NCBI GenBank assembly: GCA_964582365.1
Contig: CAZOQV010000001.1
Location: forward strand, 12,712-76,711
DNA: 64,000 bases
Origin: an uncultured Gammaproteobacteria bacterium
GTDB taxonomy: Bacteria; Patescibacteriota; Microgenomatia; UBA12405
Reading direction: 5' to 3'
Both the position numbers and the translations under genes were made by a program. Positions 5,472-31,185 of this stretch are shown piece by piece. Below the pieces are notes generated by a model. It ran no database searches. It saw nothing but the letters and a program-made list of their open reading frames with translations, and was not told the origin of the DNA. Position 1 is the first letter of the stretch, and every line of letters begins with the position of its first letter.

Positions 5472-5479
5472 TATAAATT

Positions 5480-14419: not shown

Positions 14420-14425
14420 TTTGTT

Positions 14426-15961: not shown

Positions 15962-16696
15962 AAATAATCTCTTCGCATTTTCATCAATTATTTTTTCTGT
16001 TTCTTTAAAACGTAATTTCCAAATTTCCGCTACTTTTTCATAAATATATTTAACATATTCTGGTTTATTTTCTTCGCCTCTAAAAGGTACTGGCGTTAAA
16101 TAAGGGCAATCAGTTTCTAATAACAACCTATCTTTGGGTATATTTTTAACAATTTCTTCTAATCCAATTTCATAAGTCAAATTTCCATCAATTCCAAAAT
16201 ACCAATTTTCTCCTAAATCAATTACTTTTTTAATTCTTTTATTTCCCCCAGCATAACAATGAAAAACACCAGATAAATTTTTATATTCTTTCAGAATTTC
16301 TATTACTTCATCAACTGCTTTTCTAGCATGAATTATCAATGGTTTTTTATATTTTATTGCCAATTCGATTTGCGTTCTAAAAAGTTTTTCCTGCTTGTCC
16401 GCCATAGCTTTAGCGTCGGCGGATTTGTCTGGTAAATCAGAGTAATCCAATCCGCATTCACCAATAGCTACAATTTTTTTATGATTTTTTTTGACTATTT
16501 TTTTAAGTTCGGCAGGGGAGTTATCAGCTTCTTGTGGATGAATACCTACGCTAACTAATAACTTATCAGGATATTTTTTACCTAAAATAAGGTTATTTTT
16601 AGAAGTTTCGATTGTTGCCGCCGCTAAAATAATTTTATCAATCCCCTTGTCAATGTCGCACAATCTCCCTTCCAGATGAGCATGTGTATCAATCAT
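15950..16696 (-). CDS. tatD: TatD-family metal-dependent DNase/hydrolase
   Basis: MIDTHAHL at the N-terminus, with conserved His/Glu/Asp positions. Confidence 0.85.
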   Translation of the reverse strand: MIDTHAHLEGRLCDIDKGIDKIILAAATIETSKNNLILGKKYPDKLLVSVGIHPQEADNSPAELKKIVKKNHKKIVAIGECGLDYSDLPDKSADAKAMADKQEKLFRTQIELAIKYKKPLIIHARKAVDEVIEILKEYKNLSGVFHCYAGGNKRIKKVIDLGENWYFGIDGNLTYEIGLEEIVKNIPKDRLLLETDCPYLTPVPFRGEENKPEYVKYIYEKVAEIWKLRFKETEKIIDENAKRLFLID

Positions 16697-16697
16697 C

Positions 16698-18104
16698 TTA
16701 TTTTATCCTTGGAAATAAAGATTTTTCCAACGGTTTTACCTCATTTTTAAAACAATTTTCGATTTTTTTGGCCACTTCTGGCATCACAATTTGTAAGTGG
16801 TAGGAGGCAGTTTGAATATTTTTGATACATTCATTTAACACCGCAATTCTTTCTGGATTATCTTTTTCTAATTTCCATGGAGTAGTTTGATTTAGTTTTA
16901 AATTTGACGCATCAATCCATTTTTCAAACACCAAATTAATAGCTTCATCTAATTTTAAATTGTCAATCAATTTCTCAAATTCATTATCAAATTCAATTTT
17001 AATTTCTTCTGTTTTTACACCTTCAGATAATTTAGCTACTCTGGAAACTAAATTCCCTAAATTATTAGCCAAATCAGCATTATATTTTTCTTTAAATCTC
17101 TCCATTCCCACATCACTATCATTATCCGTCGGAAAAGATCTGGCCACTAAATATCTAGCCCCCTCCACTCCGAATATGTCAACTAATTGTCGTGGTGAGA
17201 TAACATTTCCCAAAGATTTCGACATTTTTTGTCCATCAACCATGTAAAAACTATGAGTATAAGTTTTTTTAGGTAACGCAATTTTGGCTGACAATAACAT
17301 TGCTTGCCAAATCACCGTATGAAACCACAAAATTTCTTTACCCAATAAATGTAAGTCAGCTGGCCAAAAATCCTTTTTACCTTCTAAAAATTGAGTTGCA
17401 CTATAATAATTTATTAAAGCATCAAACCACACATAAACAGTTTGTTTTGAATCCCAAGGAGTAGGAATTCCCCAAGCTACATTTTCCCTAGAAATTGACA
17501 CATCTCTAATTCCACTCTTTAATTTAGACAATATCTCTATTTTTTTTCCTTCTGGAAAAATATAATTAGTTTTTTCGTCTTCAATTAAATTAATAATTTG
17601 ATGAATATATTTACTTAATCTAAAAAACCAATTTTCTTCACTTTTAAAAACTGTTTTTTCTGGTGGGTGAAGATTGCAATGTTTATCAATCAAATCAGCC
17701 TCAGTTAAAAATTTTTCACAACCGATACAGTATAAACCTTCATATTTATCTTTATATACATCGCCATTATCGTAAATTTTTTGTAAAACCTCAGCCACCA
17801 CTTTTTCATGTCTTGGATCTGTCGTTCTAATAAAAAAATCATTACTTATATTTAACTCTTTCCAAGCACATTCAAATCTGGGTGAAATTTTATCGCAGTA
17901 TTCTTTTGTTCCGCAACATTCTTTTTGAGCCGATTCTGCCACCTTTTGGCCATGTTCATCTGTTCCAGTTAAAAAGAAGACTTCTTCCCCTTTCGCTCGG
18001 TGCAATCTCGCCACCATATCCGCTGCCACAGTCGTGCAGGTGTGTCCAATATGAGGAACGTCGTTAATATAATAAATTGGTGTTGTTACAAAAAATTTCT
18101 TCAT
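16698..18104 (-). CDS. metG: Methionyl-tRNA synthetase (short form without the C-terminal tRNA-binding domain)
   Basis: The HIGH-type motif PHIGH, KMSKS, and Zn-knuckle cysteines. ATG at 18104; GTG at 18107. Confidence 0.9.
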   Translation of the reverse strand: MKKFFVTTPIYYINDVPHIGHTCTTVAADMVARLHRAKGEEVFFLTGTDEHGQKVAESAQKECCGTKEYCDKISPRFECAWKELNISNDFFIRTTDPRHEKVVAEVLQKIYDNGDVYKDKYEGLYCIGCEKFLTEADLIDKHCNLHPPEKTVFKSEENWFFRLSKYIHQIINLIEDEKTNYIFPEGKKIEILSKLKSGIRDVSISRENVAWGIPTPWDSKQTVYVWFDALINYYSATQFLEGKKDFWPADLHLLGKEILWFHTVIWQAMLLSAKIALPKKTYTHSFYMVDGQKMSKSLGNVISPRQLVDIFGVEGARYLVARSFPTDNDSDVGMERFKEKYNADLANNLGNLVSRVAKLSEGVKTEEIKIEFDNEFEKLIDNLKLDEAINLVFEKWIDASNLKLNQTTPWKLEKDNPERIAVLNECIKNIQTASYHLQIVMPEVAKKIENCFKNEVKPLEKSLFPRIK

Positions 18105-18511: not shown

Positions 18512-20125
18512 ATGACCGTCAAAGAGAGAATCAGACTTATAAGTCAAAAAAAACAAAGTACTATTTTGTCCGCCTCTTTGGTTTTGGCCACCACTTTTAT
18601 TGCTTCTTCCATCCTTGGTCTTCTAAGAAATCGTTTTCTTTACGCTAAATTTTATTCTTGTTGTGTTGCTGATCTTGATGTTTACAACGCCGCTTTTCGC
18701 ATTCCAGATTTAATTTTCAAACTTTTAGTTACCGGAGTTTTATCCGCTTCATTTATACCTGTTTTTTCCAGTTATCTACATAAAAATAAAAAAGCGGCTG
18801 ATGAAATTGCTTCTAGTGTTATTAATTTGCTCTTAATTGCCTTTATTATTATTTCTTCACTTTCTTTTATTTTTATAAAACCAATTTCCAGTTTAATTGC
18901 CTCCGGTTTTTCAGCCGATCAATTAGTTTTAATGGCCAATATCAGTCGAATTTTACTTTTTGCTCAAATATTTTTTCTTCTTAGTAATTTTGTCACCGCC
19001 ATTTTGCAAGTCAATCAAAATTTTATTATTCCCGCTCTTTCCCCTATCGTTTACAACTTATTTATTATCATCAGTATTTTTACTCTAACTCCTATTTTTG
19101 GAATTTATGGCGTTGCTATTGGTACTGTTATTGGCGCTTTTTTCCATCTTGCCATTCAAATACCAGTACTTCGCCATCAAGGTTTCCTTTATTCTCGTCA
19201 AATTAATCTAAAATTATCCGGTGTTAAAGAAATTTTTAGACTCATGGTCCCCAGAGTTTTATCGCTTGGATTAGGTGAAATTGAAAGTACTGTCACACTA
19301 TTTTTTGCCAGTTCATTGGCCTCCGGCTCCATCTCTCTTTTGAATCTTGCTCTTCAATTTATGTATTTACCAAGTCGTATTTTTGGCACCACCGTTGGTC
19401 AAGCCTCACTTCCAGCTCTTTCCAAAAACATTGCCCAAAATGAAATAGATAAGTTTAGAAATACTGTTAATAAAATTATAATTCAAAGTTTATTTATTGC
19501 CGTTCCTGTAAGTGTTTTAATCTTAGTTGAAAGAGTTTCTATCATTAGAATTCTTTATGGATCTCAAGAATTTCCTTGGTCTGCCACCATATTAACCTCC
19601 AAAATTTTAGCTTTCTTAATTCCTGGAATTGTTTGTCAAGCTGTAGTTCAAATATTAATTCGAGCTTTTTATGCTCTTCATAATACCAAGATTCCTTTCG
19701 TAATCTCTGCTATTTCTCTAATAGTAAATATTGTTGCCAGTTTCTTATTTATTCGTTTTACCAATCTTGGTGTTCTCGGCTTGGCTATCAGTGTTTCTAT
19801 CGGTAATTTAATTCAACTTTTTGGTTTATTAATCATGTTTATCAAAATTGTTGACGGCTTTGATTGGTCTTTAATGTTTAGCAAGTTTTACAAAATATTA
19901 ATTTCTTCAATTTTTATGGGTATTGTGTCTTGGTTATCTATAAAATTTTTAGATCTTTTTATTTTAGATACTGCTCGTACAATTTCTGTTTTAATTTTAG
20001 CCACCATATCTTCACTTATTGGCTTATTTACCTATGTTTTTATTGTTGTTTTTTTAAAAATGGATGAGATTAAAGATTATCGAAAATATTATTTAAGATT
20101 CAAGGATTTTATTTTCCACAGATAG
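18512..20125 (+). CDS. murJ: Lipid II flippase MurJ/MviN
   Basis: The N-terminus LRNRFLYAKF...DLDVYNAAFRIPDLIFKLLV and about 14 TM segments. Confidence 0.85.
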   Translation: MTVKERIRLISQKKQSTILSASLVLATTFIASSILGLLRNRFLYAKFYSCCVADLDVYNAAFRIPDLIFKLLVTGVLSASFIPVFSSYLHKNKKAADEIASSVINLLLIAFIIISSLSFIFIKPISSLIASGFSADQLVLMANISRILLFAQIFFLLSNFVTAILQVNQNFIIPALSPIVYNLFIIISIFTLTPIFGIYGVAIGTVIGAFFHLAIQIPVLRHQGFLYSRQINLKLSGVKEIFRLMVPRVLSLGLGEIESTVTLFFASSLASGSISLLNLALQFMYLPSRIFGTTVGQASLPALSKNIAQNEIDKFRNTVNKIIIQSLFIAVPVSVLILVERVSIIRILYGSQEFPWSATILTSKILAFLIPGIVCQAVVQILIRAFYALHNTKIPFVISAISLIVNIVASFLFIRFTNLGVLGLAISVSIGNLIQLFGLLIMFIKIVDGFDWSLMFSKFYKILISSIFMGIVSWLSIKFLDLFILDTARTISVLILATISSLIGLFTYVFIVVFLKMDEIKDYRKYYLRFKDFIFHR

Positions 20126-20142
20126 TCATATATACTGAATAT

Positions 20143-20721
20143 ATGGTCACTAAAAAAGAGCTGTCCCTTTTACCTGAATCTGAAAATCCAAGATCTTTTG
20201 GGGCTCGTTTTTTTAAGTGGTTAACCACTACCGGCAGAGTTGTAATTATTATAACTGAGTTTATTGTTATTTCCGTTTTTATTTCTCGTTTTTGGCTAGA
20301 TCGTAAAAACTCAGATTTATCTGAGGTTGTTCGTCAAAAACAAGCAATTTTAGAAAGCACTACTCCTTTTATCACTGAGTTTGTTGGACTTCAAAAAAGA
20401 TTATCTTTTATAAAAGATTTTTATTCGAATCAGCCAAATTATAATCAGCAAATTAATTCTTTGGTTTCCAGTACTCCATCTGATCTTTTTTATAATAAGA
20501 TTTCCGTTTTTACCGACGAAAAAACTAAAACAACAGTTATTACTACTTCTTTATCGGCCTACAAAGAAGAAAGCATTGTTTTGTTTATAACCAATCTAAT
20601 GTTGAACCCAGACATTGATCAAGTAAATATAAGTAAAATTGAAAAGAAAGAAAAAGAAAATCAATATTCCATTTCTCTCACTTTAAACTTTAAGAAAGCT
20701 CCAGCAGCTAATAAAATATGA
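20143..20721 (+). CDS. Single-TM bitopic protein, PilN-like (SLLP motif) or possibly divisome FtsL/DivIC-like
   Basis: The N-terminal ELSLLPE motif, a TM helix and a periplasmic domain. The ORF is translationally coupled to the next one. Confidence 0.35.
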   Translation: MVTKKELSLLPESENPRSFGARFFKWLTTTGRVVIIITEFIVISVFISRFWLDRKNSDLSEVVRQKQAILESTTPFITEFVGLQKRLSFIKDFYSNQPNYNQQINSLVSSTPSDLFYNKISVFTDEKTKTTVITTSLSAYKEESIVLFITNLMLNPDIDQVNISKIEKKEKENQYSISLTLNFKKAPAANKI

Positions 20722-21344
20722 TCAATACTAAAAATTGGTTTCAACTCAGACCTATGTATAGCTATATTCGAAAGCAGGCTGAAAACCAAAAATTTTTAAA
20801 ATATCTCGAGGTCGGTGGTACTTTTACTTTAATAGCTATTTTTTTATTTTTTGCCATTTTGCCCACCATGACCACCGTCTTTTCTCTTTTAGGTGATATA
20901 AAATCAAAAGAAATATATATTAAAAAAGTTAACGCCAAAATTAGTACTATTATTAAAGCTCAAAGCACATATGCCCAAGTTCAGGAAAATTTTTCATTAG
21001 TAGAAGATAGTTTTCCTTCGCAACCTCGATATCATAATGGAGCTTCTAACCTAGCTACTCTTTTTAGAGATTCGTTTTTAGATATAAATCAAATAAATTT
21101 TAGTTTAAACGATAAGTCTCGTGAGAGTAAGGATAATAGTTTTGGTTCTTATCAAGTCAACATAAGTGGCGAAGGACAGTATTCTGATATTCTAAATATA
21201 ACCAAAAACATGCTTAATAATCGTCGTCTAATTAATGCTTCTAATATTCAAATAAATCAATTAGAAGCTGACAAAAATAAAACAGGGTCAAATAAAGTTA
21301 AAATTAATATTTCTAATGATTTATATTATCTACTTGACGACTAA
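20718..21344 (+). CDS. Single-TM bitopic protein, PilO-like or divisome-like
   Basis: A TM helix followed by a coiled coil; ATGA overlap with the upstream ORF. Confidence 0.3.
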   Translation: MINTKNWFQLRPMYSYIRKQAENQKFLKYLEVGGTFTLIAIFLFFAILPTMTTVFSLLGDIKSKEIYIKKVNAKISTIIKAQSTYAQVQENFSLVEDSFPSQPRYHNGASNLATLFRDSFLDINQINFSLNDKSRESKDNSFGSYQVNISGEGQYSDILNITKNMLNNRRLINASNIQINQLEADKNKTGSNKVKINISNDLYYLLDD

Positions 21345-21655
21345 TGGAAAAAAATAAAATATCTTCCTACTTCATATTTATCTCTTTTTTTACTTTTTTG
21401 ACTGTATTTCTTTCTATAATTCAAAAAAGCTATTTTAGTTTTACTACTCCTCAAAAGTCAGTCGAAAATAATGCTCTTTTAGATAATTTTAATCCAGCTT
21501 TAGATTTAACTATTATTTCCACCATTGAATCTAAAAATAAAAATACTGACGAATTTTTCGATTTTTCAATTATAAAATCAAATCAGTCTGTTACTCCTAC
21601 TCCGGCTACTGAGACGTTAATTGCAACTTCGTCTGGTGAGGAGGTTACCCCTTGA
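21344..21655 (+). CDS. Small N-terminally anchored membrane protein
   Basis: A TM helix at residues 8-28, with TGATG coupling to the next gene. Confidence 0.3.
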   Translation: MEKNKISSYFIFISFFTFLTVFLSIIQKSYFSFTTPQKSVENNALLDNFNPALDLTIISTIESKNKNTDEFFDFSIIKSNQSVTPTPATETLIATSSGEEVTP

Positions 21656-23010
21656 TGTTTAAAGAAAAAAAATTTCCTACTATTCTTGGTCTTTTGCTTC
21701 TTTTTGGAGGAGTTGTTGCTGGGGTTTTTTTAACCAATCAACGAACCGGTTTTGTTTCCAAAGCCAATAGTAGTTGTCAACCTAAAAACCCTCAAATAAC
21801 CAATACTACCAACAATTCTGCTTCTATTTCTTTTGTGACCGAATCGTCTTGTTTTTCCTCTCTTCTTATTAATAATCAGACAATCGAAAACAAAGCTGCT
21901 GTTAGTGTTGATCAAAAAAGCAAAATTCATTATTTTGATGTTAATAATTTAACTCCTGCTGCTAATTATATTTTTTCTTTTATTATCGATGGGAAAAAAT
22001 ACGAAGAACCTTCATATGAATTTAAAACAGCTGATAATCCCAGTGGTTCAATTCCGTCTTCAAATTTAGCTTGGGGTCGAGTTTTTACTCCAGAACCAGA
22101 GTTAAAAGCTGCCCATAAAGTTATTGTTTTTCTTACCATTCCTGGATCAACACCTTTATCTGCTCTTGTTACTTCTTCTGGCAATTGGAACATTTCTTTA
22201 GCCAACAGTTTTAACGAGTCGAAGACTGGCAGATTTACTGCAACTAAAAATATCAGTGAAGAAATTATTGTAATTGATCAAAATAATCAAGCCACTCAGA
22301 TTACAGGTAATACTTCGAATAATAATCCAGTTCCAGACATTATCTTAGGTCAAAATCAATTTTCCGCCGCCGCTATTATTTATGACACGGAAACTGATAC
22401 TGGTTCTTTATCTTCTGTTACTCCAGCTTTAGAATCAAAAGAGCTAGATATTTTAAACCCAAAAGAAAATGAAGCTATTTCTACTCAGAAACCAGATTTC
22501 TTTGGAACTAGTCCTGGTAACTCTATTATTAAAATAGAAATTCATTCTCCGACAACTTATAGCGGGGAAGTTGTTTCTAATAGCGATGGTTCTTGGAATT
22601 GGTCTCCACCTTCAAATCTAGAACCAGGAGAACACACCATCACTGCCACCACTATTATTAATGGAGTTGAAAAAATAATAACCAGAAAATTTACTGTTCT
22701 TGCTACTGACAGTGGTCTTGCTTACACCGCTTCTTCTTCAGCTACTACTCCTACCCCTACCCCTACTGTTACTTCCATTCCTACTATTGCTCCTACCCCT
22801 ACTACTATGGAAATTTCTACCCCCACTGCCACTATAATTCCAACTTCAACTCCCGATGAAATTCCCACTTCTTCTCCCACTGTTATGGTTAGTACTCCTA
22901 GCACTAGCTCTGGTATTCCCAAAACTGGTAATCTATTTTCCACAATTCTATTACTTTTAGTCTCATCATCTTTTATTGCTTTTTCTTTTTTCTCTTTTAA
23001 GAAAAAATAA
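21655..23010 (+). CDS. Cell-surface protein with a C-terminal sortase sorting signal (IPKTG + hydrophobic segment + KKK), a Pro/Thr-rich stalk and Ig-like domains
   Basis: The SD GGAGG lies 10 nt upstream of the ATG at 21655. The C-terminus is SGIPKTGNLFSTILLLLVSSSFIAFSFFSFKKK, and a PT-rich linker spans 22740-22910. Confidence 0.6.
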   Translation: MFKEKKFPTILGLLLLFGGVVAGVFLTNQRTGFVSKANSSCQPKNPQITNTTNNSASISFVTESSCFSSLLINNQTIENKAAVSVDQKSKIHYFDVNNLTPAANYIFSFIIDGKKYEEPSYEFKTADNPSGSIPSSNLAWGRVFTPEPELKAAHKVIVFLTIPGSTPLSALVTSSGNWNISLANSFNESKTGRFTATKNISEEIIVIDQNNQATQITGNTSNNNPVPDIILGQNQFSAAAIIYDTETDTGSLSSVTPALESKELDILNPKENEAISTQKPDFFGTSPGNSIIKIEIHSPTTYSGEVVSNSDGSWNWSPPSNLEPGEHTITATTIINGVEKIITRKFTVLATDSGLAYTASSSATTPTPTPTVTSIPTIAPTPTTMEISTPTATIIPTSTPDEIPTSSPTVMVSTPSTSSGIPKTGNLFSTILLLLVSSSFIAFSFFSFKKK

Positions 23011-23054
23011 TATTTTATTTTCAGTCGACTGTTTTTAATGGTATCATTATTCAA

Positions 23055-23984
23055 ATGTCAGGAATATTTTTTTTTAACGCTGTATCAAGAGAAATTCGTG
23101 TTTCTCAATGGATAAAAAATTTAAGTATTTTTTCGGCTATCATCTTAAATGGTCAACTTCTTAATCCTCTACTTTTTTGGAAGACTTTTTTTGCCTTTAT
23201 TGCTTTTTGTTTATTGTCCTCTTCTTCTTATATCGTCAATGATCTTTTTGATGTTAAAAAAGATCGACTACACCCTGTCAAAAAAAACCGTCCCATTGCT
23301 CATGGTGATATCTCGGAAGCAACCGGAATTTTTTTGGCTTTCCTTCTTCTTTTTTTAGGGCTAGGAATAACTATCTTTATTAGTTATGGGTTTTTTATCC
23401 TTTCTCTTGTTTTTGTTTTACTTCAATATTCCTATTCTCTGTTTTTAAAAAAGAAGGCCATTATCGACATCATGGGAATTGCTTTGTTTTTTATAATTCG
23501 TGCTTATGCCGGTGAAGTCGTTACTGGTTATCATCTTCCCATTTGGATCATGCTAACTGTTATCTTTTTATCTTTATTTATCGCTAGTGGAAAACGTCGT
23601 AGCGAATTGGTAAATATTGGTACTAAAACTCGTTCGGCTTTGGCTGGTTACGGTAAAAGTTTATTAAATTTTTATACCACCATGTTTGCTGTTTGTACTT
23701 TAATAACCTACGCCATGTTTACTTTTTTGGAAGAATCAATCAGTTTCACTGGTTCTGGTATTTTACATAATTTTCTCTTGGAAAATTTTCCTAACGCTTT
23801 AAATCGTAAATGGTACATGGTCACCCTTTTACCGGTAATTTTTGGCATTATGCGCTATGGTCAAATAATTTTTGAAATGCAAGAAGGTGAGAGACCAGAA
23901 AGAATAGTTGCTCGTGATATGCCAATTTTATTTTCAGTTCTAATTTGGGGATTGATGATAATTGGTATTATCTATGTACTCTAA
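23055..23984 (+). CDS. UbiA-family prenyl-phosphate phosphoribosyltransferase-like protein (DPPR-synthase/Rv3806c-like)
   Basis: The motif NDLFDVKKDRLHPVKKNRPIAHG (NDxxDxxxD followed by RPIA.G) and 8-9 TM helices. Confidence 0.7.
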   Translation: MSGIFFFNAVSREIRVSQWIKNLSIFSAIILNGQLLNPLLFWKTFFAFIAFCLLSSSSYIVNDLFDVKKDRLHPVKKNRPIAHGDISEATGIFLAFLLLFLGLGITIFISYGFFILSLVFVLLQYSYSLFLKKKAIIDIMGIALFFIIRAYAGEVVTGYHLPIWIMLTVIFLSLFIASGKRRSELVNIGTKTRSALAGYGKSLLNFYTTMFAVCTLITYAMFTFLEESISFTGSGILHNFLLENFPNALNRKWYMVTLLPVIFGIMRYGQIIFEMQEGERPERIVARDMPILFSVLIWGLMIIGIIYVL

Positions 23985-25566
23985 TAAAATAAAAAAATTT
24001 CTAATTCCATTTTTTTTGATATTTCTGATTATTTTTACTCGCTTTTCTTTTCTCAATTGGGGTAACGGTTTTTTCTTTAATCCAGATGAAAATAATATGG
24101 CCAATGCTGTATTAAAAATGACTCCATCAGATCTTAATCCAAAATTTTTTGCCTATGGTCAATTCCCGCTTTTTTTAACTTTTTTTACCACTCCTCTTCA
24201 TAAATTTTCCACCATTATTTTAACTCTTCGTTTTTGGTCAGCCACTTTTTCTTCCCTGTCAATTTTATTTTTTTATCTTATTGCCAATCATATTTTTAAA
24301 TCTAAAAAATTAAACTACATTTTTACCTTATTATTAATTTTTACTCCGGGATTAATTCAATCTGCTCATTTTGGCACCACTGAATCGCTTTTAATTTTTG
24401 TTTTTTCTGTCAATATTTTTTTGTCTTTAAAATATTATCAAGATCAAAAAAAACTATATTTTCTATTTTCAATTTTAATCAGTGCTATCGGTCTTGGCTC
24501 TAAGATAACAGCTATATTCTTCATTTTACCTATCTATTTTTGTTTCTTTTTGATTTTTTTAAAAGATAAAAAAATTTTAAATTTTATTTTCACTGTTTTT
24601 ATTTTCACTCTTCTAGTTTCACTTCTCTCACTCCTTTTTTCTCCATTTAACATCATAAAATTTTCAGATTTTAAATCATCAATGGTTTACGAAACATCAG
24701 TGGCTACTGGTAAAACTCTAGTTTTTTACACTCGTCAATTTGAAAACTCATTACCTTACCTTTTTCAAATTAAAAAAGTTTTTCCATATGCTAACGGTAT
24801 TTTTATCTTCATTTTTTCTTTTATAGGATTTTATTTATTTCTTAAATCATATTTCTTAAACTTGCCCCGCAACTGCTGGGGTCATAAATCAAATTTACTT
24901 TTAGTATTAATTCCTTCAATAATATATTTTGCTTATTCTGGTCAACTTTTTATTAAATGGTCTCGTTTTGTCTCACCTCTTTTTTTTATTGCTCCGTTTT
25001 TTTGTCTTTTTATTTTTCAAAAAATTAAAAACAAATTTTTAACTTTAATTTTATTAATAATTATGATTACTCCTGGAGTTTATTTTTTCTCAAAATATTT
25101 TTCACCAGACATCAGAATTAATGCTTCTAATTGGATTAATTCAAATATCCCAGCAGATTCTTTTGTTTTATCTGAAGGCGGAAATGTTGTGGATATTCCT
25201 CTTTCAAATAACAAACTTCATATTAGTAATTTTGATTTTTATCAATTGGATTCAAATAATAGTTTTTTTAATAAATTGACCAATGATTTAACTTCGGCTG
25301 ATTATATTTTTATTCCTTCTCGCCGGGTTTTTAAAAATCAAAATAATAAAAATTATCCAATATCACAAAAATATTATCAAAATTTATTTTCAGAAAATAT
25401 CGGTTTTAAGGAAATAAAAATTATTAATAATCAAAAAGATTTATTTTTAAATTCTGAAAATGCTGAAGAAACTTGGTCTGTTTTTGATTCCCCCACTATT
25501 AGAATTTACAAAAAAGTTATCAATTTGTCTCCAGATGATTACCAAGAATTGTTTAAAAATAATTAA
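23974..25566 (+). CDS. GT-C superfamily (PMT/ArnT-like, GT39/83) polyprenyl-phosphate-sugar-dependent glycosyltransferase
   Basis: About 12 TM helices and the loop-1 motif NPDENNMANA. It is a paralog of the next gene, sharing LNPKFFAYG.FP. Confidence 0.65.
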   Translation: MYSNKIKKFLIPFFLIFLIIFTRFSFLNWGNGFFFNPDENNMANAVLKMTPSDLNPKFFAYGQFPLFLTFFTTPLHKFSTIILTLRFWSATFSSLSILFFYLIANHIFKSKKLNYIFTLLLIFTPGLIQSAHFGTTESLLIFVFSVNIFLSLKYYQDQKKLYFLFSILISAIGLGSKITAIFFILPIYFCFFLIFLKDKKILNFIFTVFIFTLLVSLLSLLFSPFNIIKFSDFKSSMVYETSVATGKTLVFYTRQFENSLPYLFQIKKVFPYANGIFIFIFSFIGFYLFLKSYFLNLPRNCWGHKSNLLLVLIPSIIYFAYSGQLFIKWSRFVSPLFFIAPFFCLFIFQKIKNKFLTLILLIIMITPGVYFFSKYFSPDIRINASNWINSNIPADSFVLSEGGNVVDIPLSNNKLHISNFDFYQLDSNNSFFNKLTNDLTSADYIFIPSRRVFKNQNNKNYPISQKYYQNLFSENIGFKEIKIINNQKDLFLNSENAEETWSVFDSPTIRIYKKVINLSPDDYQELFKNN

Positions 25567-27334
25567 AAAAAGAAAAAATATTTTTTTATTAATATTAATT
25601 TTTTTGATATCTTTTTCTTTTAGAATCATCGGACTAAATTGGGATCAAGGTAACCATCTCCATCCAGACGAAAGGATGATTACTATGGTGGCAGAAAAAA
25701 TTGCTTTTCCCACTATCGACCCCAAATTAACTTTAAGCGAAAAAGTTGGAATTTTGTTTGATTCCAAGTCTTCTCTTAATCCAAAATTTTTTGCCTACGG
25801 ATCTTTTCCGATCTATTTACTAAAAGGAGTTTCTTATCTGCTTTCTTTTGTAGACCCGTCATTAGTCACTTACGGAAAAATGAATTTAGTCGGTCGTTTT
25901 TTATCAGCTATTTTTGATTCTTTAACAGTCATATTAATTTTTAAAATAACCTTACAAATTTTTAACTCAAATAAAAAGGCCCTATTTGCGGCTTTATTTT
26001 ATTCTTTATCAATATTACCAATACAACTTTCTCACTTTTACGCTGTCGATACTCTCTTAACTTTTTTTATTTTTTTTACTCTATATCACGCGATCTGTCT
26101 TTATCAAAAATTTAATTTTAGAAATGCTCTTTTTGTTGGAATTGGTTTTGGTCTTTCCTTGGCCACTAAAATAAGTGCCACTGTTTTAGTTTTTTCTCTA
26201 GGTATTGGTTTAATTGTTAGTATTTTTCTTTCACTTAAAAAAGAAATTTTTGGAGAAAATATCAGTTTTCTAAAGAAAATTAGAAAATATTTAGGAAAAA
26301 TATTTAGTCTTAAGTTTTGGAGTTTTAGAAAACAACATCAATTAAAAGACATATTTCTTTATTTTTTATTAATAATGTTTGTTACGGAAATAGTTTTTAT
26401 TGCTTTTCAGCCATTTGCCCTTTTTGATTTTAATGAATTTTGGAAACAACTTAATCAGCAAAAAGCCATGACAAAAAACGCTTTTATTTTTCCTTACACT
26501 CTTCAATATGTCAATACAATTCCCTATCTCTATCAACTAAAAAATATATTTTTATGGGGGTTAGGGCCAGTCTTTGGGATTTTTGCTTTGTTCGGCGGAA
26601 TTTACACTTTTTTAAAATTAATTAAAGGCTTATTTACTCCGGGTAATGAAAAATCTGAAGGTTCTCAATTAATCATTTTTTCCTTTTTTATTATTTATTT
26701 TTTAATTATTGGACGATTTGCTGTAAAGTTTAATCGTTATTGTTTACCACTTTATCCAATTTTTGCCATTTTTGCCTCCAACTTTATTTTTTCTCTTAAA
26801 AAGAAAAAATTAATTATTGTTTTTTCATTGTTTCATTTTTTGTGGTTATTTGCTTTTATGAATATTTACAAAGTTCCAAATACTCGTGTCTCTGCCACTG
26901 AATGGATTAAACAAAATGTTCCTGCGGGCAGTACTATTCTAAGAGAACATTGGGATGACGGTCTTCCTTTGGGTTATCATAATAATTTAAATTTAATCGA
27001 ATTGCAGTTATATGATTCGGATAATAATCCCCAAAAATGGCCTTCGATTAAAAATTATTTAAATAAAGGCGACTATTTAATTATCGCCAGTAACCGACTT
27101 TATACTCCTCTCCAAAAACTAACCGATTGTAAAAATTTACCTAAAGATAAGTGTTATGTCACCACTGCCAATTATTATAAAGATTTATTTTCAGACAAAT
27201 TAGGTTATTCTAAAGTAGCCGAATTTTCTAGTTATCCAAACATTTTTGGTTTAAATATCAACGATCAATCAGCTGACGAATCATTCACTGTTTATGATCA
27301 TCCCAAAGTGATAATATTTAAAAATATTAATTAA
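25535..27334 (+). CDS. GT-C superfamily glycosyltransferase, paralog of the 23974..25566 gene
   Basis: The HPDER loop motif and polytopic topology. The start is uncertain: the ATG at 25535 overlaps the upstream gene by 32 nt, and the ORF-track start at 25460 overlaps it by 107 nt. Confidence 0.65.
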   Translation: MITKNCLKIIKKRKNIFLLILIFLISFSFRIIGLNWDQGNHLHPDERMITMVAEKIAFPTIDPKLTLSEKVGILFDSKSSLNPKFFAYGSFPIYLLKGVSYLLSFVDPSLVTYGKMNLVGRFLSAIFDSLTVILIFKITLQIFNSNKKALFAALFYSLSILPIQLSHFYAVDTLLTFFIFFTLYHAICLYQKFNFRNALFVGIGFGLSLATKISATVLVFSLGIGLIVSIFLSLKKEIFGENISFLKKIRKYLGKIFSLKFWSFRKQHQLKDIFLYFLLIMFVTEIVFIAFQPFALFDFNEFWKQLNQQKAMTKNAFIFPYTLQYVNTIPYLYQLKNIFLWGLGPVFGIFALFGGIYTFLKLIKGLFTPGNEKSEGSQLIIFSFFIIYFLIIGRFAVKFNRYCLPLYPIFAIFASNFIFSLKKKKLIIVFSLFHFLWLFAFMNIYKVPNTRVSATEWIKQNVPAGSTILREHWDDGLPLGYHNNLNLIELQLYDSDNNPQKWPSIKNYLNKGDYLIIASNRLYTPLQKLTDCKNLPKDKCYVTTANYYKDLFSDKLGYSKVAEFSSYPNIFGLNINDQSADESFTVYDHPKVIIFKNIN

Positions 27335-27346
27335 AATAATTAAAAA

Positions 27347-28387
27347 ATGAAACAAACTATATTTATAACCGGAGGATCGGGATTTTTAGGCATAAATATG
27401 GTTAGGTTTTTGTTAGAAAAAAAGAAAAATATTATAAATTACGATATTGCTGATTTTAATTATCCAGAGAAATCCAAAATTAAAAGCTATCTTGCCGATA
27501 TCAGAGATAAAGAGAAACTGACAAAGGCCATGAAAGGGGCGGATATTGTTTTACACTTTGCCGCTGCTTTACCGCTTTATTCTAAAGAGGATATTTTTTC
27601 CACCGAAATAGATGGCACTAGAAACGTTTTACAATCGGCATTTGAAAATGGAATTAAAAAAGTTATTTATATTTCTTCGACGGCAGTTTATGGTATTCCA
27701 GATCATCACCCTATAGTTGAAACAGATAAATTAATTGGTGTTGGTCCCTACGGTGAATCTAAAATTAAGGCTGAAGAAATTTGTCGCCAATTTCGCAAAG
27801 AAGGGATGTGTATTCCTATTCTTAGACCAAAATCATTTATAGGGCCAGAACGATTAGGTGTTTTTTCTTTATTTTATAATTGGGCCAAAGATGGTAAAAA
27901 TTTTCCCTTAATTGGTAACGGTCGCAATCGTTATCAATTATTAGCAGTAATCGATTTGTGTCAAGCCGTTTGGGCGGTTATGAACGGCGAGGATAACAAA
28001 GTTAATGATGTTTTTAATATTGGTGCCAAAGAATTTAAAACCATGAAAGATGATTATCAATCAGTCCTTGATTATGCTGGTTTTGGTAAAAAAATTATCT
28101 GCTTTCCGGCCAAACCAGTTATTTTTACGCTTAAAGTATTAGAAGCACTTCATCTTTCTCCTTTTTATGCCTGGATTTATGAAACAGCCGCCAAAGATTC
28201 TTTTGTTTCTATCAAAAAAGCCGAAAAAATACTGAAATTTAACCCAAGATACTCCAATCAAGATGCCTTATTGGAAAATTACAAATGGTACTTGAAAAAT
28301 TTAGATCAATTTCAAAATACCACCGGTATTTCTCATCGTGTCCCCTGGAGCCAGGGCATTTTTAAAATAGTTAAAAATTTTTTCTAA
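27347..28387 (+). CDS. NAD-dependent epimerase/dehydratase (extended SDR)
   Basis: GGSGFLG (GxxGxxG) and the catalytic YGESK. Confidence 0.8.
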   Translation: MKQTIFITGGSGFLGINMVRFLLEKKKNIINYDIADFNYPEKSKIKSYLADIRDKEKLTKAMKGADIVLHFAAALPLYSKEDIFSTEIDGTRNVLQSAFENGIKKVIYISSTAVYGIPDHHPIVETDKLIGVGPYGESKIKAEEICRQFRKEGMCIPILRPKSFIGPERLGVFSLFYNWAKDGKNFPLIGNGRNRYQLLAVIDLCQAVWAVMNGEDNKVNDVFNIGAKEFKTMKDDYQSVLDYAGFGKKIICFPAKPVIFTLKVLEALHLSPFYAWIYETAAKDSFVSIKKAEKILKFNPRYSNQDALLENYKWYLKNLDQFQNTTGISHRVPWSQGIFKIVKNFF

Positions 28388-28432
28388 AAATATTATTGAT
28401 ATAATTCAAGTCATAACCATACATATAAATAT

Positions 28433-29017
28433 ATGACTTTAGCTGTATTGAAAAAAAATTTTTTATTTTGGCAACCAAAAACAGATTGGTTTAAAAAAAT
28501 ATCAAAATACAAATATGGTAATTGTTTTTTAGTTTTTATAAATTACATTATTTGGATTTTTTTGTTTTTTGTTTCCTTTCTTTTAATTAAAGAACAAACA
28601 AACATTTTTTGGCAGTTATTTACCGCTACTTTTATCAGTGAAATAGTTGAAAAATTTTTAAAAGTTCAACCACTTTGGAGAAGACCACTTCATTTAGGTA
28701 ATAATACTTTGCCAAATGGACTATTAAAATCTTGGTATAAAAAAGGAAGTTTTCCCTCCGGCCATGCCATAAAAGCCACTTTCTTTTTACTTTTTGTCTT
28801 GCAATATTCTGGTATTATCAATCCTTTTATTTTTACAATTATTATTGTAGCTCTAGTTTTAATTCGTATTTTCCTTGGTCTTCACTATCCAATTGATGTT
28901 CTTGGAGGAATTCTCATTGGCATTCTCATTTGGATACCAGTTCATTTTTTAACTTTCCCTATTTTTTTAACCGAAATAATTAAGACCATTTTTAATTTTG
29001 TTTTCTGTATTACTTGA
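28433..29017 (+). CDS. PAP2-family lipid phosphatase
   Basis: All three PAP2 motifs are present: KVQPLWRRP, PSGH and RIFLGLHYPID. Confidence 0.75.
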   Translation: MTLAVLKKNFLFWQPKTDWFKKISKYKYGNCFLVFINYIIWIFLFFVSFLLIKEQTNIFWQLFTATFISEIVEKFLKVQPLWRRPLHLGNNTLPNGLLKSWYKKGSFPSGHAIKATFFLLFVLQYSGIINPFIFTIIIVALVLIRIFLGLHYPIDVLGGILIGILIWIPVHFLTFPIFLTEIIKTIFNFVFCIT

Positions 29018-29055
29018 AAAAACTTTATAACTTGATGAACTTGATAAACTAAACT
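29017..29055 (+). promoter_or_regulatory. Conserved leader motif, copy 2, with an extra 9-nt CTTGATGAA unit, directly abutting the start of the 29056 membrane-protein gene
   Basis: aaaaactttataacttgatgaacttgataaactaaact followed by atg. Confidence 0.3.
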
Positions 29056-31185
29056 ATGTTGTCAGATTTAACTTTTATTCTTGCTTGGTGGTTTTTAATT
29101 TTTGTTTTAGGAATTATTTTTCTACCATTAACCACAGTTTTCTTTAAAAAGTTTTGGGACAAAGGATACATTTTTTCTAAAATAAGTTGTATTGCTGTCT
29201 TAACCTATTTGATTTTTATAGGCGGTATTTTTAAAGTTTTAACTTTCACAAATTTAAATTTATTTTTAATTTTATTTTTATTATTTTTAATAAATTTATT
29301 TTTTCTTAAACATAAAAACAATTTTTCGGTTTTTAAAAAAACCATAAAAGAAAATTATAAAACTTTTATTTTTGAAGAAATTTTATTTCTTTTTATTTTA
29401 ATAGCTTGGTCTTTTGTTCGTGGTTTTACTCCCGACATTGAAGGTCTAGAAAAATATATGGATTGGGGATTTATGAATTCTGCCTTAAAATCCAAATTTT
29501 TACCACCACTAGATATGTGGTTTTCTGGTGAAATTATAAATTATTATTATTTTGGTCATTTAATTTTTGCTGTTTTAACCAAATTAAGTACCATTAGCTC
29601 GGCCATTACCTACAATTTATCAATTGCCACTCTTTGTGCTCTTACTTTTGTATCTTCTTTTTCCATTGCCTCTAATTTAGTTTTTCTTTCCATAAAGAAA
29701 AATCTGCCCTCCTTGTCAAGGGAGGGTGTCCGTAGGACGGGTGGGTTTCGAAAAATAATTACTGCTGGACTAATCTCTGCTTTACTCTTAACCTTTGGAG
29801 GGAACCTCCATTCTGTTTACAAAATTACAAAAATAAATATTAAAGATAATGGCAAATTTGTTTTAACTCAAAAAGCCATTAATGATTCAATTAATAAATA
29901 TTGGTATCCCGACGCCACTCGTTTTATTGGTTACGACCCAGATGTTAAAGATAAAACCATCCATGAATTTCCTCTTTATAGTTTTGTAGTTTCTGATCTT
30001 CATGGTCATGTCAACGACATCCCCGTCATTTTATTTTTTATGGCCTTTTTAATAGCTATTAGTTTTTCTTCATCAAGTTTAATTAATGTTCTTTTGATTG
30101 TTGTTTCTGGCTTCACTTTGTCGATTGCCTACATGACCAACGCTTGGGATTTCGCTGTTTACGGTCTTTTATTTGCTTTTTTTACTCTTTTTTCAAACTT
30201 AAAAAACTCTAAAAATCCTATCGGAAAAACTTTTATTAATGGAATTTTAACTATTGCTTGTTGGTTTATTTTCTCTCTTCCTTTTTCTTTGAAATTTATT
30301 CCCATGGCCAGTGGTTTAAAACTTTCCGATGTCCATAGTCATTTTTATCAATTATTTATTTTGTATGGCGGTTTTTGGCTGATTTGCTTACCGTTTTTAA
30401 TATTATTTTTTAAAAAAATAATTTTTAGAAATTTGAAATTTGAAATTAGAAATTCAGATTTATTTGTCTTTGCCGCTATCACCACTGCCACTCTTTTAAT
30501 AATTATTCCTGAAATAATTTATTTAAAAGATATTTACATCTATGAATATCGTCGTGCTAATACTATGTTTAAATTAGTTTATCAGGCTTTTATTATGTAC
30601 TCTCTGGTTTCTGGCTATGTTTTTTATAAAGTTAAAAGTCTATTAAAATCCAAATGGCTTAATGTTTTATATGGTTTATTGTTCGCCTTAGTTTTTTTTG
30701 TTCATATGATTTATCCCTATTTTGCCATTAAATCATTTTATGGATCTTTTAAAAATTACAAAGGTTTATGGGGTTTAAATTATTTAAAAAATGATTACGT
30801 TGATAATTTTGCCGCTATTAATTGGATTAATGAAAATATCTCTGGTCAACCAGTAATGCTAGAAGCAGTAGGCGATAGCTATACTACTTTTAACCAAGTT
30901 TCTGTCTCTACTGGACTACCAACTGTTCAAGGTTGGATTGTTCATGAATGGCTTTGGCGCGGTGGATATGACAAACCAAAACAACGGCAAGATGATGTTC
31001 AAAATATTTATGAAAATGAAAATACCGAAAGGTTAAAAATTTTAATTCAAAAATACAATATTAAATATATCTTTGTTGGCACCAAAGAATACGAAAAATA
31101 TCCTAAATTAAATGATAAAAATTTTAAAGAAATCGGGGGGCAAATTATTTTTCAGTCTGGTAAAACCAAAATTTACCGGCTATAG
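29056..31185 (+). CDS. Large polytopic membrane protein with a C-terminal soluble domain, a putative GT-C-type glycosyltransferase
   Basis: More than 12 TM helices, the loop motif FPLYSFVVSDLHGHV, and co-linear placement with the GT-C/UbiA/PAP2 cluster. Confidence 0.5.
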   Translation: MLSDLTFILAWWFLIFVLGIIFLPLTTVFFKKFWDKGYIFSKISCIAVLTYLIFIGGIFKVLTFTNLNLFLILFLLFLINLFFLKHKNNFSVFKKTIKENYKTFIFEEILFLFILIAWSFVRGFTPDIEGLEKYMDWGFMNSALKSKFLPPLDMWFSGEIINYYYFGHLIFAVLTKLSTISSAITYNLSIATLCALTFVSSFSIASNLVFLSIKKNLPSLSREGVRRTGGFRKIITAGLISALLLTFGGNLHSVYKITKINIKDNGKFVLTQKAINDSINKYWYPDATRFIGYDPDVKDKTIHEFPLYSFVVSDLHGHVNDIPVILFFMAFLIAISFSSSSLINVLLIVVSGFTLSIAYMTNAWDFAVYGLLFAFFTLFSNLKNSKNPIGKTFINGILTIACWFIFSLPFSLKFIPMASGLKLSDVHSHFYQLFILYGGFWLICLPFLILFFKKIIFRNLKFEIRNSDLFVFAAITTATLLIIIPEIIYLKDIYIYEYRRANTMFKLVYQAFIMYSLVSGYVFYKVKSLLKSKWLNVLYGLLFALVFFVHMIYPYFAIKSFYGSFKNYKGLWGLNYLKNDYVDNFAAINWINENISGQPVMLEAVGDSYTTFNQVSVSTGLPTVQGWIVHEWLWRGGYDKPKQRQDDVQNIYENENTERLKILIQKYNIKYIFVGTKEYEKYPKLNDKNFKEIGGQIIFQSGKTKIYRL

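Follow-up and report, generated by a model that had tools for sequence, protein, structure and literature searches.

What does a run of six closely packed genes in the genome of a Candidatus Shapirobacteria bacterium make, and on what does its product act? The original prediction, which was based on the 64-kb stretch of DNA analysed here (the window), described six co-directional genes and related them to the mycobacterial pathway for lipid-linked arabinose. All six open reading frames are indeed present and packed at 23055-31185 (+ strand), and each of the gene families that had been named was recovered by Pfam and NCBIfam profile searches. The host is a tiny, uncultured bacterium of the monoderm-type CPR. 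The six genes are as follows:

23055..23984, + strand: UbiA-superfamily gene of the PPPRS/DPPR-synthase type (309 aa)
23974..25566, + strand: GT-C1, PMT_2/GT39-like, core gene (530 aa; alternative TTG start at 23962, 534 aa)
25535..27334, + strand: GT-C2, PMT_2/GT39-like (599 aa; alternative ATG start at 25460, 624 aa)
27347..28387, + strand: extended GalE-like SDR, NAD-dependent epimerase/reductase, accessory gene (346 aa)
28433..29017, + strand: PAP2 lipid phosphatase, proposed by analogy to Rv3807c as polyprenyl-P-ribose-5-phosphate 5'-phosphatase (194 aa)
29056..31185, + strand: DUF2298/Chlor_Arch_YYY membrane protein with a GT-C fold and an AglB-like C-terminal globular domain, core gene (709 aa)

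With the starts of public gene callers, the two overlapping pairs that had been reported are UbiA/GT-C1 (11 nt) and GT-C1/GT-C2 (32 nt), and the remaining gaps within the six genes are 12, 45 and 38 nt. The motifs that had been quoted were all found, namely NDLFDVKKDRLHPVKKNRPIAHG in the UbiA protein, GGSGFLG and YGESK in the SDR, and KVQPLWRRP, PSGH and RIFLGLHYPID in the PAP2 protein. The arrangement is not due to chance: of the 58 loci from GTDB species representatives in which UbiA and DUF2298 are both present, 56 repeat the order UbiA-GT-C1-...-PAP2-DUF2298, and it is seen in more metagenome contigs as well. At least 58 Shapirobacteria genomes, counted at species level, keep the locus, whose accessory region varies. 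This is a new point, and in relatives the variable region includes GT4 and methyltransferase genes. The six genes do not form a unit with boundaries of its own: they are part of a longer co-directional, packed run that extends from MurJ (18512) to FemAB (35158). Promoter and terminator scans gave no signal above chance.

By its sequence, the UbiA protein is a phosphoribosyltransferase of the DPPR-synthase type. It belongs to Pfam UbiA (E = 1.3e-24), and its top NCBIfam models are the DPPRS model NF008978 (188 bits, against an equivalog cutoff of 207), NF008977 (183 against 234), and NF008976 (144 against 474), whereas the models of other UbiA subfamilies (MenA, UbiA, CyoE, chlorophyll synthase, and archaeal lipids) reach at most 53 bits. 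The protein is thus a divergent member below the equivalog cutoffs, and is therefore filed as 'PPPRS-type' and not as an equivalog of the mycobacterial enzyme. Similarly, the solved structure of Rv3806c (PDB 8J8J) is matched over the full length (E = 1.3e-31), in comparison to 2e-6 for ordinary prenyltransferases (4TQ3). The NDxxDxxxD motif of cytoplasmic loop 1 (N62-D63-x-x-D66-x-x-x-D70) aligns to N73-D74-x-x-D77-x-x-x-D81 of Rv3806c, and 11 of the 13 residues that bind PRPP or polyprenyl phosphate in 8J8J/8J8K are identical: R22, K28, Y70, N73, D77, K87, R90, Q135, Y138, K143, and K191 of Rv3806c correspond to R15, K21, Y59, N62, D66, K76, R79, Q124, Y127, K132, and K180, respectively. Ten of these eleven are invariant across 33 homologues, and both Q124 and K180 are invariant. 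The two changed residues are Y157, which is F146 here (F also occurs in some mycobacteria), and K208, which is S194. In Rv3806c, phosphoribose is contacted by K28, Y70, N73, and Q135, sites that are not common to ordinary UbiA enzymes (PMC10994848). All four are kept, together with the pyrophosphate-binding residues R22, K87, R90, Y138, and K143 (Rv3806c numbering), and the assignment to the Rv3806c type rather than to quinone or haem prenyltransferases is therefore upheld. If the protein were a conventional aromatic or haem prenyltransferase, as its place in Pfam UbiA and the label '4-hydroxybenzoate polyprenyltransferase' on homologues in some source databases might suggest, then its clustering with glycosyltransferase genes would be incidental; this is barely credible and is effectively refuted by the model scores, by the retention of Rv3806c-specific PRPP-binding residues, and by synteny with PAP2 and GT-C genes that is kept in at least 56 species.

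The fifth gene encodes a PAP2 phosphatase (Pfam PAP2, E = 2e-13) in which the three predicted motifs can be read directly: KX6RP as K77-x6-R84-P85, PSGH as P108-S-G-H111, and RX5HX3D as R145-x5-H151-x3-D155, although the Ser that precedes the Arg of the third motif (SRX5HX3D) is Ile here. UbiA and PAP2 occur together in 56 of the 58 GTDB loci, and loci with enough flanking sequence always have both or neither; in the metagenome set they occur jointly in 12 of 12 loci and never singly. Given this genomic context, and by analogy to Rv3807c, the protein is proposed to dephosphorylate polyprenyl-P-ribose-5-P. If it were instead a carrier-lipid recycler (an undecaprenyl-diphosphate phosphatase), then ribose-5-phosphate would be kept on the donor or cleared by another enzyme. 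Such a role is very improbable. Its NCBIfam matches are confined to undecaprenyl-diphosphatases, PgpB, and LpxE, none of them stronger than E = 1e-7 and all well under cutoff, and PAP2 active sites usually face outward, the orientation of this protein being ambiguous by hydropathy. However, a housekeeping recycler is not expected to track UbiA, whereas PAP2 is present exactly when UbiA is and a small HAD-like protein replaces it where UbiA is absent. Additionally, there is a precedent in mycobacteria, in which 5'-dephosphorylation is performed by Rv3807c, likewise a PAP2 enzyme (PMC11127046).

The SDR is less closely tied to these two enzymes. It matches Pfam Epimerase (PF01370, E = 1.2e-38), but no NCBIfam equivalog was reached and no DprE2 model was among the 25 best matches. 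The proposed likeness to DprE2 did not hold beyond the generic Rossmann fold, as the protein is of the extended, GalE-like type. It reads SSTAVYG/YGESK where 4,6-dehydratases read STDEVYG, and so lacks the Asp-Glu pair of the latter. An SDR orthologue is present in 8 of the 58 related loci and absent from most loci that contain UbiA, and orthologues (43% identity) are also found in sister-lineage loci with no UbiA within 10 kb. The SDR is therefore an accessory gene with a weak tie to the pentose donor. Wherever an SDR orthologue occurs (8 loci), GT-C2 has an orthologue too, at 57% identity or higher; close orthologues of GT-C2 and the SDR move together as one variable module. The absence of a DprE1-like FAD oxidase from the cluster, which had been pointed out, extends to the entire window, in which no DprE1 (FAD_binding_4) was found among all ORFs of at least 100 aa. 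Epimerisation by the SDR alone, which had been offered as one outcome, is conceivable and has a published precedent in ORF13 (PMC11127046).

The GT-C fold is common to the three large membrane proteins, as established by superposition on solved enzymes and, for GT-C1, through its paralogy to GT-C2. GT-C1 (Pfam PMT_2, 1.8e-7; PMT, 3.6e-7) and GT-C2 (PMT_2, E = 7.9e-13) are full-length paralogues (27% identity, E = 6e-43), as predicted, and passing the PMT/PMT_2 thresholds indicates only domain membership in the GT39/PMT class. The PMT_2 family also spans ArnT-like lipid/glycan transferases, i.e., those with non-protein acceptors. For the AF2 model of GT-C2 (pLDDT 89.7), every significant Foldseek match was a GT-C enzyme (STT3, AglB, ALG9/12, Pmt4, ArnT, PglB). 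In its first extracytoplasmic loop, the acidic motif H43-P-D45-E46-R47 is invariant; the first loop of GT-C1, which has an orthologue in 56 of the 58 related loci, carries an NPDEN motif. The sixth protein scores 473 bits on TIGR03662 (Chlor_Arch_YYY; cutoff 300.25) and matches PF10060 (DUF2298) at E = 1.6e-92, and the GT-C-like nature suggested for it is supported by structure comparison of the predicted fold. Around its YYYxG motif, the broad family shows no variation at N162-Y163-Y164 and very little at Y165 and G167. Thousands of proteins belong to DUF2298, a family to which no function has been assigned. One related locus (L069) is cut down to UbiA-PAP2-DUF2298, without PMT_2 genes, and DUF2298 is thus a plausible user of the donor.

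The upstream neighbours, which are outside the enzyme set, include candidates for the acceptor and for a flippase:

18512..20125, + strand: MurJ, MOP-superfamily flippase (Pfam MurJ, E = 7.3e-77; MatE, E = 1.4e-14)
20143-20721, + strand: PilN-like (weak Pfam PilN match, 0.0023, below cutoff)
20718-21344, + strand: PilO-like (weak Pfam PilO match, 0.0004, below cutoff)
21344-21655, + strand: single-TM protein of 103 aa with a TP-rich tail, conserved neighbour
21652..23010, + strand: Big_13 Ig-like surface protein, candidate acceptor, with a Ser/Thr/Pro-rich stalk and an IPKTG + TM + KKK sorting signal

The synteny of the PilN-like, PilO-like, and 103-aa genes (20143..21655) is kept in Shapirobacteria and sister lineages. 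The Big_13 protein is directly upstream of the glycosylation genes both in loci of the UbiA type and in those of the sister lineages. Among its 71 orthologues, 53 have a [LIVM]PxTG-like motif followed by a TM helix, many of the C-termini inspected have a basic tail, and the stalk is 31-55% S/T/P. The earlier suggestion of an adjacent sortase-type surface protein thus holds for the sorting signal on this neighbour, but no sortase gene lies within the window. That the glycosylation locus always adjoins PilN/PilO-like genes and a sortase-anchored protein with an S/T/P-rich stalk is a new point. No MATE, SMR, or GtrA flippase is found among the six genes, and gaps of at most 45 nt leave no space for a missed ORF. 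The lone flippase-type gene near the cluster is MurJ, 3 kb upstream, which adjoins the locus in all Shapirobacteria loci with enough flank and is divergently oriented in sister lineages. It is most likely the housekeeping lipid II flippase, and is a weak candidate for the donor flippase.

Overall, the locus probably encodes a lipid-carrier-dependent system of the polyprenyl-phosphoribose type, by which pentofuranose is attached outside the cytoplasm. The UbiA enzyme, at the cytoplasmic face, would move 5-phosphoribose from PRPP onto polyprenyl phosphate, as its strong homology and substrate-binding residues indicate. PAP2 would then take off the 5-phosphate to give polyprenyl-P-ribofuranose, a step suggested by the Rv3807c analogy and the strict co-inheritance with UbiA. 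Where it is present, here and in a minority of relatives, the SDR might epimerise the lipid-linked ribose to xylofuranose or arabinofuranose via a transient keto intermediate. The donor would be flipped by a transporter encoded outside the six genes, and the two PMT_2 paralogues and DUF2298, judging from their fold, would move the pentose onto an extracytoplasmic acceptor. The best candidates for this acceptor are the adjacent wall-anchored protein with the S/T/P stalk and a peptidoglycan-associated polymer. With three transferases here, and GT4 and methyltransferase genes in the variable region of relatives, an oligomeric or polymeric product seems likelier than one side-chain sugar.

In sister lineages, a FAD oxidoreductase and a HAD-like protein stand in place of UbiA and PAP2, which is also a new point, and the GT-C genes, the SDR, and DUF2298 occur with no UbiA or PAP2 within 10 kb. 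Therefore, the transferases are not intrinsically tied to a PRPP-derived donor. If the donors are mixed, then UbiA and PAP2 would feed polyprenyl-P-ribose to one transferase (probably DUF2298), while the PMT_2 pair would O-glycosylate protein, namely the Big_13 stalk, with a polyprenyl-P-hexose produced elsewhere as donor, and the SDR would act on a nucleotide sugar instead of the lipid-linked pentose. This arrangement is unlikely, but several observations are consistent with it: the PMT_2/PMT domains are over cutoff, and public annotation calls the PMT_2 proteins GT39; sister-lineage loci have the PMT_2 genes, the SDR, and DUF2298 but no UbiA; the minimal locus L069 has UbiA-PAP2-DUF2298 but no PMT_2 genes; the SDR is found with both types of cassette; the STP-rich anchored protein is always adjacent; and one sister locus (L083) has a GT2 gene of a size typical of polyprenyl-P-hexose synthases. 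Against it, no GT2 or other polyprenyl-P-hexose synthase, and no polyprenyl-P-mannose synthase, was found at the window's locus, the PMT_2 family includes non-protein transferases such as ArnT, and the UbiA/GT-C1 and GT-C1/GT-C2 overlaps imply tight co-expression.

A single PRPP-derived pentose donor, the preferred reading, has experimental parallels. Systems in which a polyprenyl-phosphoribose synthase and a phosphatase are combined with a GT-C enzyme and, optionally, with an epimerase have been described as widespread (Kelly et al., PNAS 2024; PMC11127046), and this logic (PPPRS, phosphatase, optional SDR epimerase, and GT-C) was shown experimentally for ORF15-ORF14-ORF12 of Citrobacter youngae O1/O2, with ORF13 in O2 (PMC11127046). 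The pairing of a PPPRS with a phosphoribosyl phosphatase is found here as UbiA and PAP2 in one co-directional unit. As in C. youngae, the window locus has a UbiA-type synthase that is predicted to use PRPP, a putative dedicated phosphatase, an optional GalE-like SDR, and GT-C enzymes that would act outside the membrane, and its UbiA protein also scores 166 bits on the HAD-UbiA fusion model PRK08238 (NF006088). In contrast, the C. youngae phosphatase is a fused HAD (PRP) domain whereas that of the window is a separate PAP2 membrane protein. The GT-C enzymes of the window locus number three and belong to PMT_2 and DUF2298, its six genes include no MATE flippase, O-antigen backbone genes are absent, and the host is of the monoderm type.

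The likeness to the mycobacterial and corynebacterial DPA pathway (Rv3806c, Rv3807c, DprE1, DprE2, Rv3789, Emb/Aft) is less complete, as the window is without DprE1, its SDR is not a classical SDR like DprE2, the cluster has no equivalent of the flippase-type Rv3789 (GtrA family), and its GT-C proteins have no sequence-level match to Emb/Aft proteins. In Pseudomonas aeruginosa group IV pilin D-arabinofuranosylation (TfpW, PsPA7_6245-6249), a GT-C enzyme O-glycosylates a surface protein with a lipid-linked pentofuranose that derives from a PPPRS; the window glycosylation genes are beside PilN/PilO-like genes and an S/T/P-rich surface protein. However, the window locus is without a pilin gene, PilB/C/M, or a DprE1/E2 homologue, and the link to pili is one of adjacency, with PilN/PilO matches below Pfam cutoffs. 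In Azorhizobium caulinodans, Nod factors are arabinosylated through NoeCHOP, of which NoeC is an Rv3806c-type UbiA enzyme; NoeH and NoeO are of the DprE1/E2 type, which is absent from the window, and the acceptor is a lipo-chitooligosaccharide.

The suggestion that no such pathway had been described for this kind of bacterium was too strong, since such systems were called widespread in a 2024 study (PMC11127046) and homologues of the UbiA protein from Shapirobacteria already carry the name 'decaprenyl-phosphate phosphoribosyltransferase' in public annotation. The pathway kind is known from tuberculosis bacteria and some Gram-negatives, and had not previously been pointed out in Shapirobacteria. 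The result thus adds a phylum, and another combination of enzymes, to a recently defined pathway type, without a new principle. A broader proposal, tentative and on balance doubtful, is that DUF2298 is a new GT-C family by which Microgenomates glycosylate their cell wall or the proteins anchored in it, with an evolutionarily swappable donor cassette (UbiA and PAP2 versus a FAD oxidoreductase and a HAD-like protein), and that its Shapirobacteria members use PRPP-derived polyprenyl-P-pentofuranose to build a surface polymer or protein glycan that contains pentofuranose and resembles arabinan, ribofuranan, or xylofuranan. The present analysis gives DUF2298 its first functional context, a GT-C fold tied to lipid-carrier glycosylation genes across Microgenomates. 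The envelope of CPR/Patescibacteria is almost entirely uncharacterised, yet their epibiotic lifestyle relies on it; the prediction here is that Shapirobacteria would decorate a surface molecule with a PRPP-derived pentofuranose.

The original prediction of a six-gene cluster for lipid-linked pentose was confirmed as an observation, with six + strand open reading frames (ORFs) at exactly the predicted positions in the window. Gene starts are those of public gene callers on an identical contig, and family values come from a Pfam/NCBIfam scan:

23055-23984, + strand: gene 1, UbiA-type polyprenyl-phosphate phosphoribosyltransferase (UbiA, 1.3e-24)
23974-25566, + strand: gene 2, GT-C1, PMT_2 membrane glycosyltransferase (PMT_2 and PMT, over cutoff)
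25535-27334, + strand: gene 3, GT-C2, PMT_2 membrane glycosyltransferase (PMT_2 and PMT, over cutoff)
27347-28387, + strand: gene 4, GalE-like extended SDR (Epimerase PF01370, 1.2e-38)
28433-29017, + strand: gene 5, PAP2 lipid phosphatase (PAP2, 2e-13)
29056-31185, + strand: gene 6, DUF2298 protein (DUF2298, 1.6e-92; TIGR03662 Chlor_Arch_YYY, 473 bits against a cutoff of 300)

With these starts, UbiA overlaps GT-C1 by 11 nt and GT-C1 overlaps GT-C2 by 32 nt, and the other junctions leave gaps of 12, 45 and 38 nt. The six genes lie inside a longer co-directional, tightly packed run from MurJ (18512) to FemAB (35158) and have no separate boundaries of their own. Scans for promoters and terminators around the cluster performed no better than on shuffled sequence, and operon boundaries were therefore not placed. 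An Rfam scan of the window gave no match at the gathering threshold. The names carried by close homologues assign the organism to Candidatus Shapirobacteria (Patescibacteria/Microgenomates).

The gene 1 product was set apart from MenA, UbiA and CyoE by HMM discrimination. Its best four NCBIfam models are three for decaprenyl-phosphate phosphoribosyltransferase (188, 183 and 144 bits) and PRK08238 (166 bits), which we take to represent a HAD-UbiA fusion architecture, as in Citrobacter ORF15; models for quinone, haem, chlorophyll and archaeal-lipid prenyltransferases all score at most 53 bits. The phosphoribosyltransferase scores are slightly under the equivalog cutoffs, and the protein is therefore a divergent member of that group. 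Among solved structures, it matches mycobacterial Rv3806c (8J8J) over its full length at E = 1.3e-31, and ordinary UbiA prenyltransferases only at 2e-6. The latter do not share the phosphoribose-binding sites of Rv3806c (PMC10994848). Substrate-binding residues were taken from that cryo-EM study and transferred via the 8J8J alignment. All four phosphoribose contacts (K28, Y70, N73, Q135) are kept as K21, Y59, N62 and Q124, the Mg ligand D77 as D66, the pyrophosphate cluster (R22, K87, R90, Y138, K143) as R15, K76, R79, Y127 and K132, and the lipid-phosphate ligand K191 as K180. Y157 is replaced by Phe, as in some mycobacteria (PMC10994848), and the only lost residue is K208 (S194). The mapped residues are invariant in 33 homologues. 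Model scores, structure match and binding residues thus all place the protein, as predicted, with the phosphoribosyltransferases and not with the quinone or haem enzymes.

The three large membrane proteins are all GT-C enzymes, as had been proposed, GT-C1 through paralogy to GT-C2 alone (full-length, 27% identity, E = 6e-43). The AlphaFold2 model of GT-C2 (pLDDT 89.7) matches solely GT-C folds at E <= 0.001, namely STT3, AglB, PglB, ALG9/12, DPY19, Pmt4 and ArnT. Its first extracytoplasmic loop carries an H-P-D-E-R motif, invariant in 47 homologues, which aligns with N-P-D-E-N in GT-C1. Similarly, the DUF2298 model (pLDDT 80.9, pTM 0.88) matches only GT-C folds. The link of DUF2298 and the GT-C2 family to GT-C comes through fold comparison only; sequence and profile searches of both against PDB sequences gave nothing significant, and STT3 was not among the Pfam matches of 41 DUF2298 members at E <= 10. 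Any likeness of the 'TIHE' and 'WLWRGG' stretches of DUF2298 to the oligosaccharyltransferase motifs TIXE and WWDYG is therefore not claimed here. The DUF2298 family is large (6364 cluster representatives at E <= 0.001), and a literature search for the function of DUF2298, TIGR03662 or PF10060 found nothing relevant.

The SDR had been assigned the fold of DprE2, but the likeness ends at the Rossmann fold, the protein being of the extended type. It reads SSTAVYG where dTDP-glucose 4,6-dehydratases have STDEVYG, followed by YGESK, and thus has the Ser/Thr-Tyr-Lys triad without the dehydratase Asp-Glu pair. This residue pattern is that of a predicted epimerase or reductase; no NCBIfam equivalog was reached. 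As noted earlier for the cluster, DprE1 is missing: no FAD_binding_4 protein was found among ORFs of at least 100 aa in the 64-kb window. The same set contains no sortase.

Comparison with other genomes shows which genes travel together. A scan of GTDB species representatives with UbiA, by clade-specific peptide patterns, gave 80 loci (120 matches), every one of them Shapirobacteria-like. The kept order is MurJ - PilN-like - PilO-like - small protein - Big_13 - UbiA - GT-C1 - [variable] - PAP2 - DUF2298 - UvrD - FemAB. Over the 58 loci holding both UbiA and DUF2298, GT-C1 and PAP2 are each present in 56 and a GT-C2-family gene in 54; an SDR orthologue occurs in only eight, each of which also has a close GT-C2 orthologue, at 57% identity or more. 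The locus is cut down to UbiA-PAP2-DUF2298 in L069; L010 has these three genes too, with DUF2298 truncated. The GT-C1-PAP2 interval is hypervariable across loci L003-L082 (1.5-9 kb), its content differing by species. In 28 loci it includes a GT4 glycosyltransferase encoded on the opposite strand; its other contents are methyltransferases (FkbM-type and class I), SDRs (GDP-mannose-dehydratase-like and others), DUF362 and additional PMT_2 genes. The interval resembles a serotype-like diversification site of a surface glycan. Many public records of this locus type (L003, L005, L009, L010, L041, L083 and others) bear the titles 'uncultured Gammaproteobacteria', 'Candidatus Methanoperedens', 'Candidatus Limnocylindrales' or 'Candidatus Parcubacteria/Woesebacteria'; these titles are probably binning or labelling errors, since gene content and identities point to Microgenomates.

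A broader search, with a diverse DUF2298 alignment against metagenome contigs and two look-ups via GT-C2 homologues, recovered sister Microgenomates lineages with the same frame as Shapirobacteria, [MurJ] - PilN - PilO - Big_13 - ... - DUF2298 - UvrD - FemAB, which also encloses GT-C genes and the SDR. The UbiA slot is occupied there by an FAD oxidoreductase (NF005560 'hypothetical protein', about 400 bits), and the PAP2 slot by a small soluble HAD-like protein that has LISSR and DDD after an N-terminal FDLDKV (HAD motif I):

L083: 5574-6821, FAD oxidoreductase; 16268-16816, HAD-like protein
L084: 7023-8360, FAD oxidoreductase; 14401-14979, HAD-like protein
Many of the loci L103-L164: both genes

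The HAD-like protein has only weak HAD IIIB matches and could not be connected with the phosphoribosyl-phosphatase domain described in the literature. No phosphoribosyltransferase lies within 10 kb of this cassette. Sequence of 7 kb or more upstream of DUF2298 is available in 37 loci. Of these, 12 hold both UbiA and PAP2, none holds just one of the two, and 15 hold the FAD oxidoreductase, always without UbiA. Where 800 nt or more lies upstream, PAP2 is present in 18 loci and the HAD-like protein in 24, and no locus has both. The sister-lineage set of FAD oxidase, SDR and phosphatase echoes DprE1/DprE2/Rv3807c, but the folds are unrelated. In L083 (19071-21701) and L084 (17328-21710), DUF2298 is followed not by UvrD but by T4SS-like genes (T4SS_pilin, PrgI-like, TraC-like and a TraG/VirB4-type ATPase).

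These data bear on two parts of the interpretation. The PAP2 protein has all three expected motifs (KX6RP, PSGH, RX5HX3D); its sole family-level NCBIfam matches, to undecaprenyl-diphosphatases, PgpB and LpxE, are weak, and by hydropathy and the positive-inside rule residues 59-77 are possibly membrane-spanning, which leaves the side of the active site ambiguous. Because it is co-inherited with UbiA, the best evidence here, PAP2 is taken as a partner of UbiA rather than a general recycler of carrier lipid. The sister lineages also indicate that dependence on a PRPP-derived donor is not inherent to the GT-C genes, the SDR or DUF2298, which weakens part of the interpretation.

A candidate acceptor is encoded directly upstream of UbiA (21652-23010). 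This Ig-like (Big_13) protein has a stalk rich in Ser/Thr/Pro and a sorting signal made up of IPKTG, a transmembrane segment and KKK. An [LIVM]PxTG-like motif is kept in 53 of 71 orthologues, with stalks of 31-55% S/T/P. Some Shapirobacteria DUF2298 homologues (P0128, P0149, P0152, P0154, P0155) end in a peptidoglycan-binding LysM domain, which suggests that the outer domain of the enzyme is at the peptidoglycan and that it acts at the cell wall. From these two features, the acceptor could be the anchored Big_13 protein or a wall-associated polymer.

Further features of the window were noted. The Big_13 gene closes a module (20143-23010) with PilN-like and PilO-like proteins (under Pfam cutoffs) and a single-TM protein of 103 aa whose tail is TP-rich; throughout Microgenomates this module stays next to MurJ and the glycosylation genes. 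Since it adjoins neither a pilin gene nor PilM, PilB or PilC, it may be no type IV pilus module at all. A Gly/Val-rich 110-aa ORF on the - strand (22722-23054) runs antisense to the 3' portion of the Big_13 gene, which is Pro/Thr-rich; the ORF is almost certainly just a shadow of this repeat-like coding sequence. Three more proteins with a probable surface or adhesion role are encoded at 99-3707 and 3804-6772: a 1202-aa FG-GAP/dockerin-like repeat protein, then one of 555 aa that matches no family and one of 430 aa that ends in an SH3b domain. A 190-aa ORF (63014-63586) weakly matches IS200-like Y1 transposases (E = 2.8e-6, no single stretch passing).

The locus follows the same logic as that of Citrobacter youngae, where alpha-ribofuranose or xylofuranose side chains were shown experimentally (Kelly et al., PNAS 2024, PMC11127046). 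There, ORF15 joins a UbiA-type polyprenyl-phosphoribose synthase to a HAD phosphatase, ORF14 is a MATE flippase and ORF12 a GT-C enzyme founding GT136, and serotype O2 also has ORF13, a lone GalE-like SDR epimerase (PMC11127046). With UbiA and PAP2 separate, the window combination is closer to the mycobacterial system, but it lacks DprE1/E2; unlike C. youngae, it has no dedicated flippase, and its GT-C families (PMT_2, DUF2298) have so far no tie to pentofuranose transfer. Some Shapirobacteria homologues are already annotated publicly as 'decaprenyl-phosphate phosphoribosyltransferase', and a literature search found no paper on such a pathway in CPR bacteria. Overall, the earlier interpretation is correct in outline, apart from the DprE2-like reading of the SDR, and the locus is a testable entry point to CPR envelope glycobiology that also gives DUF2298 a functional context.
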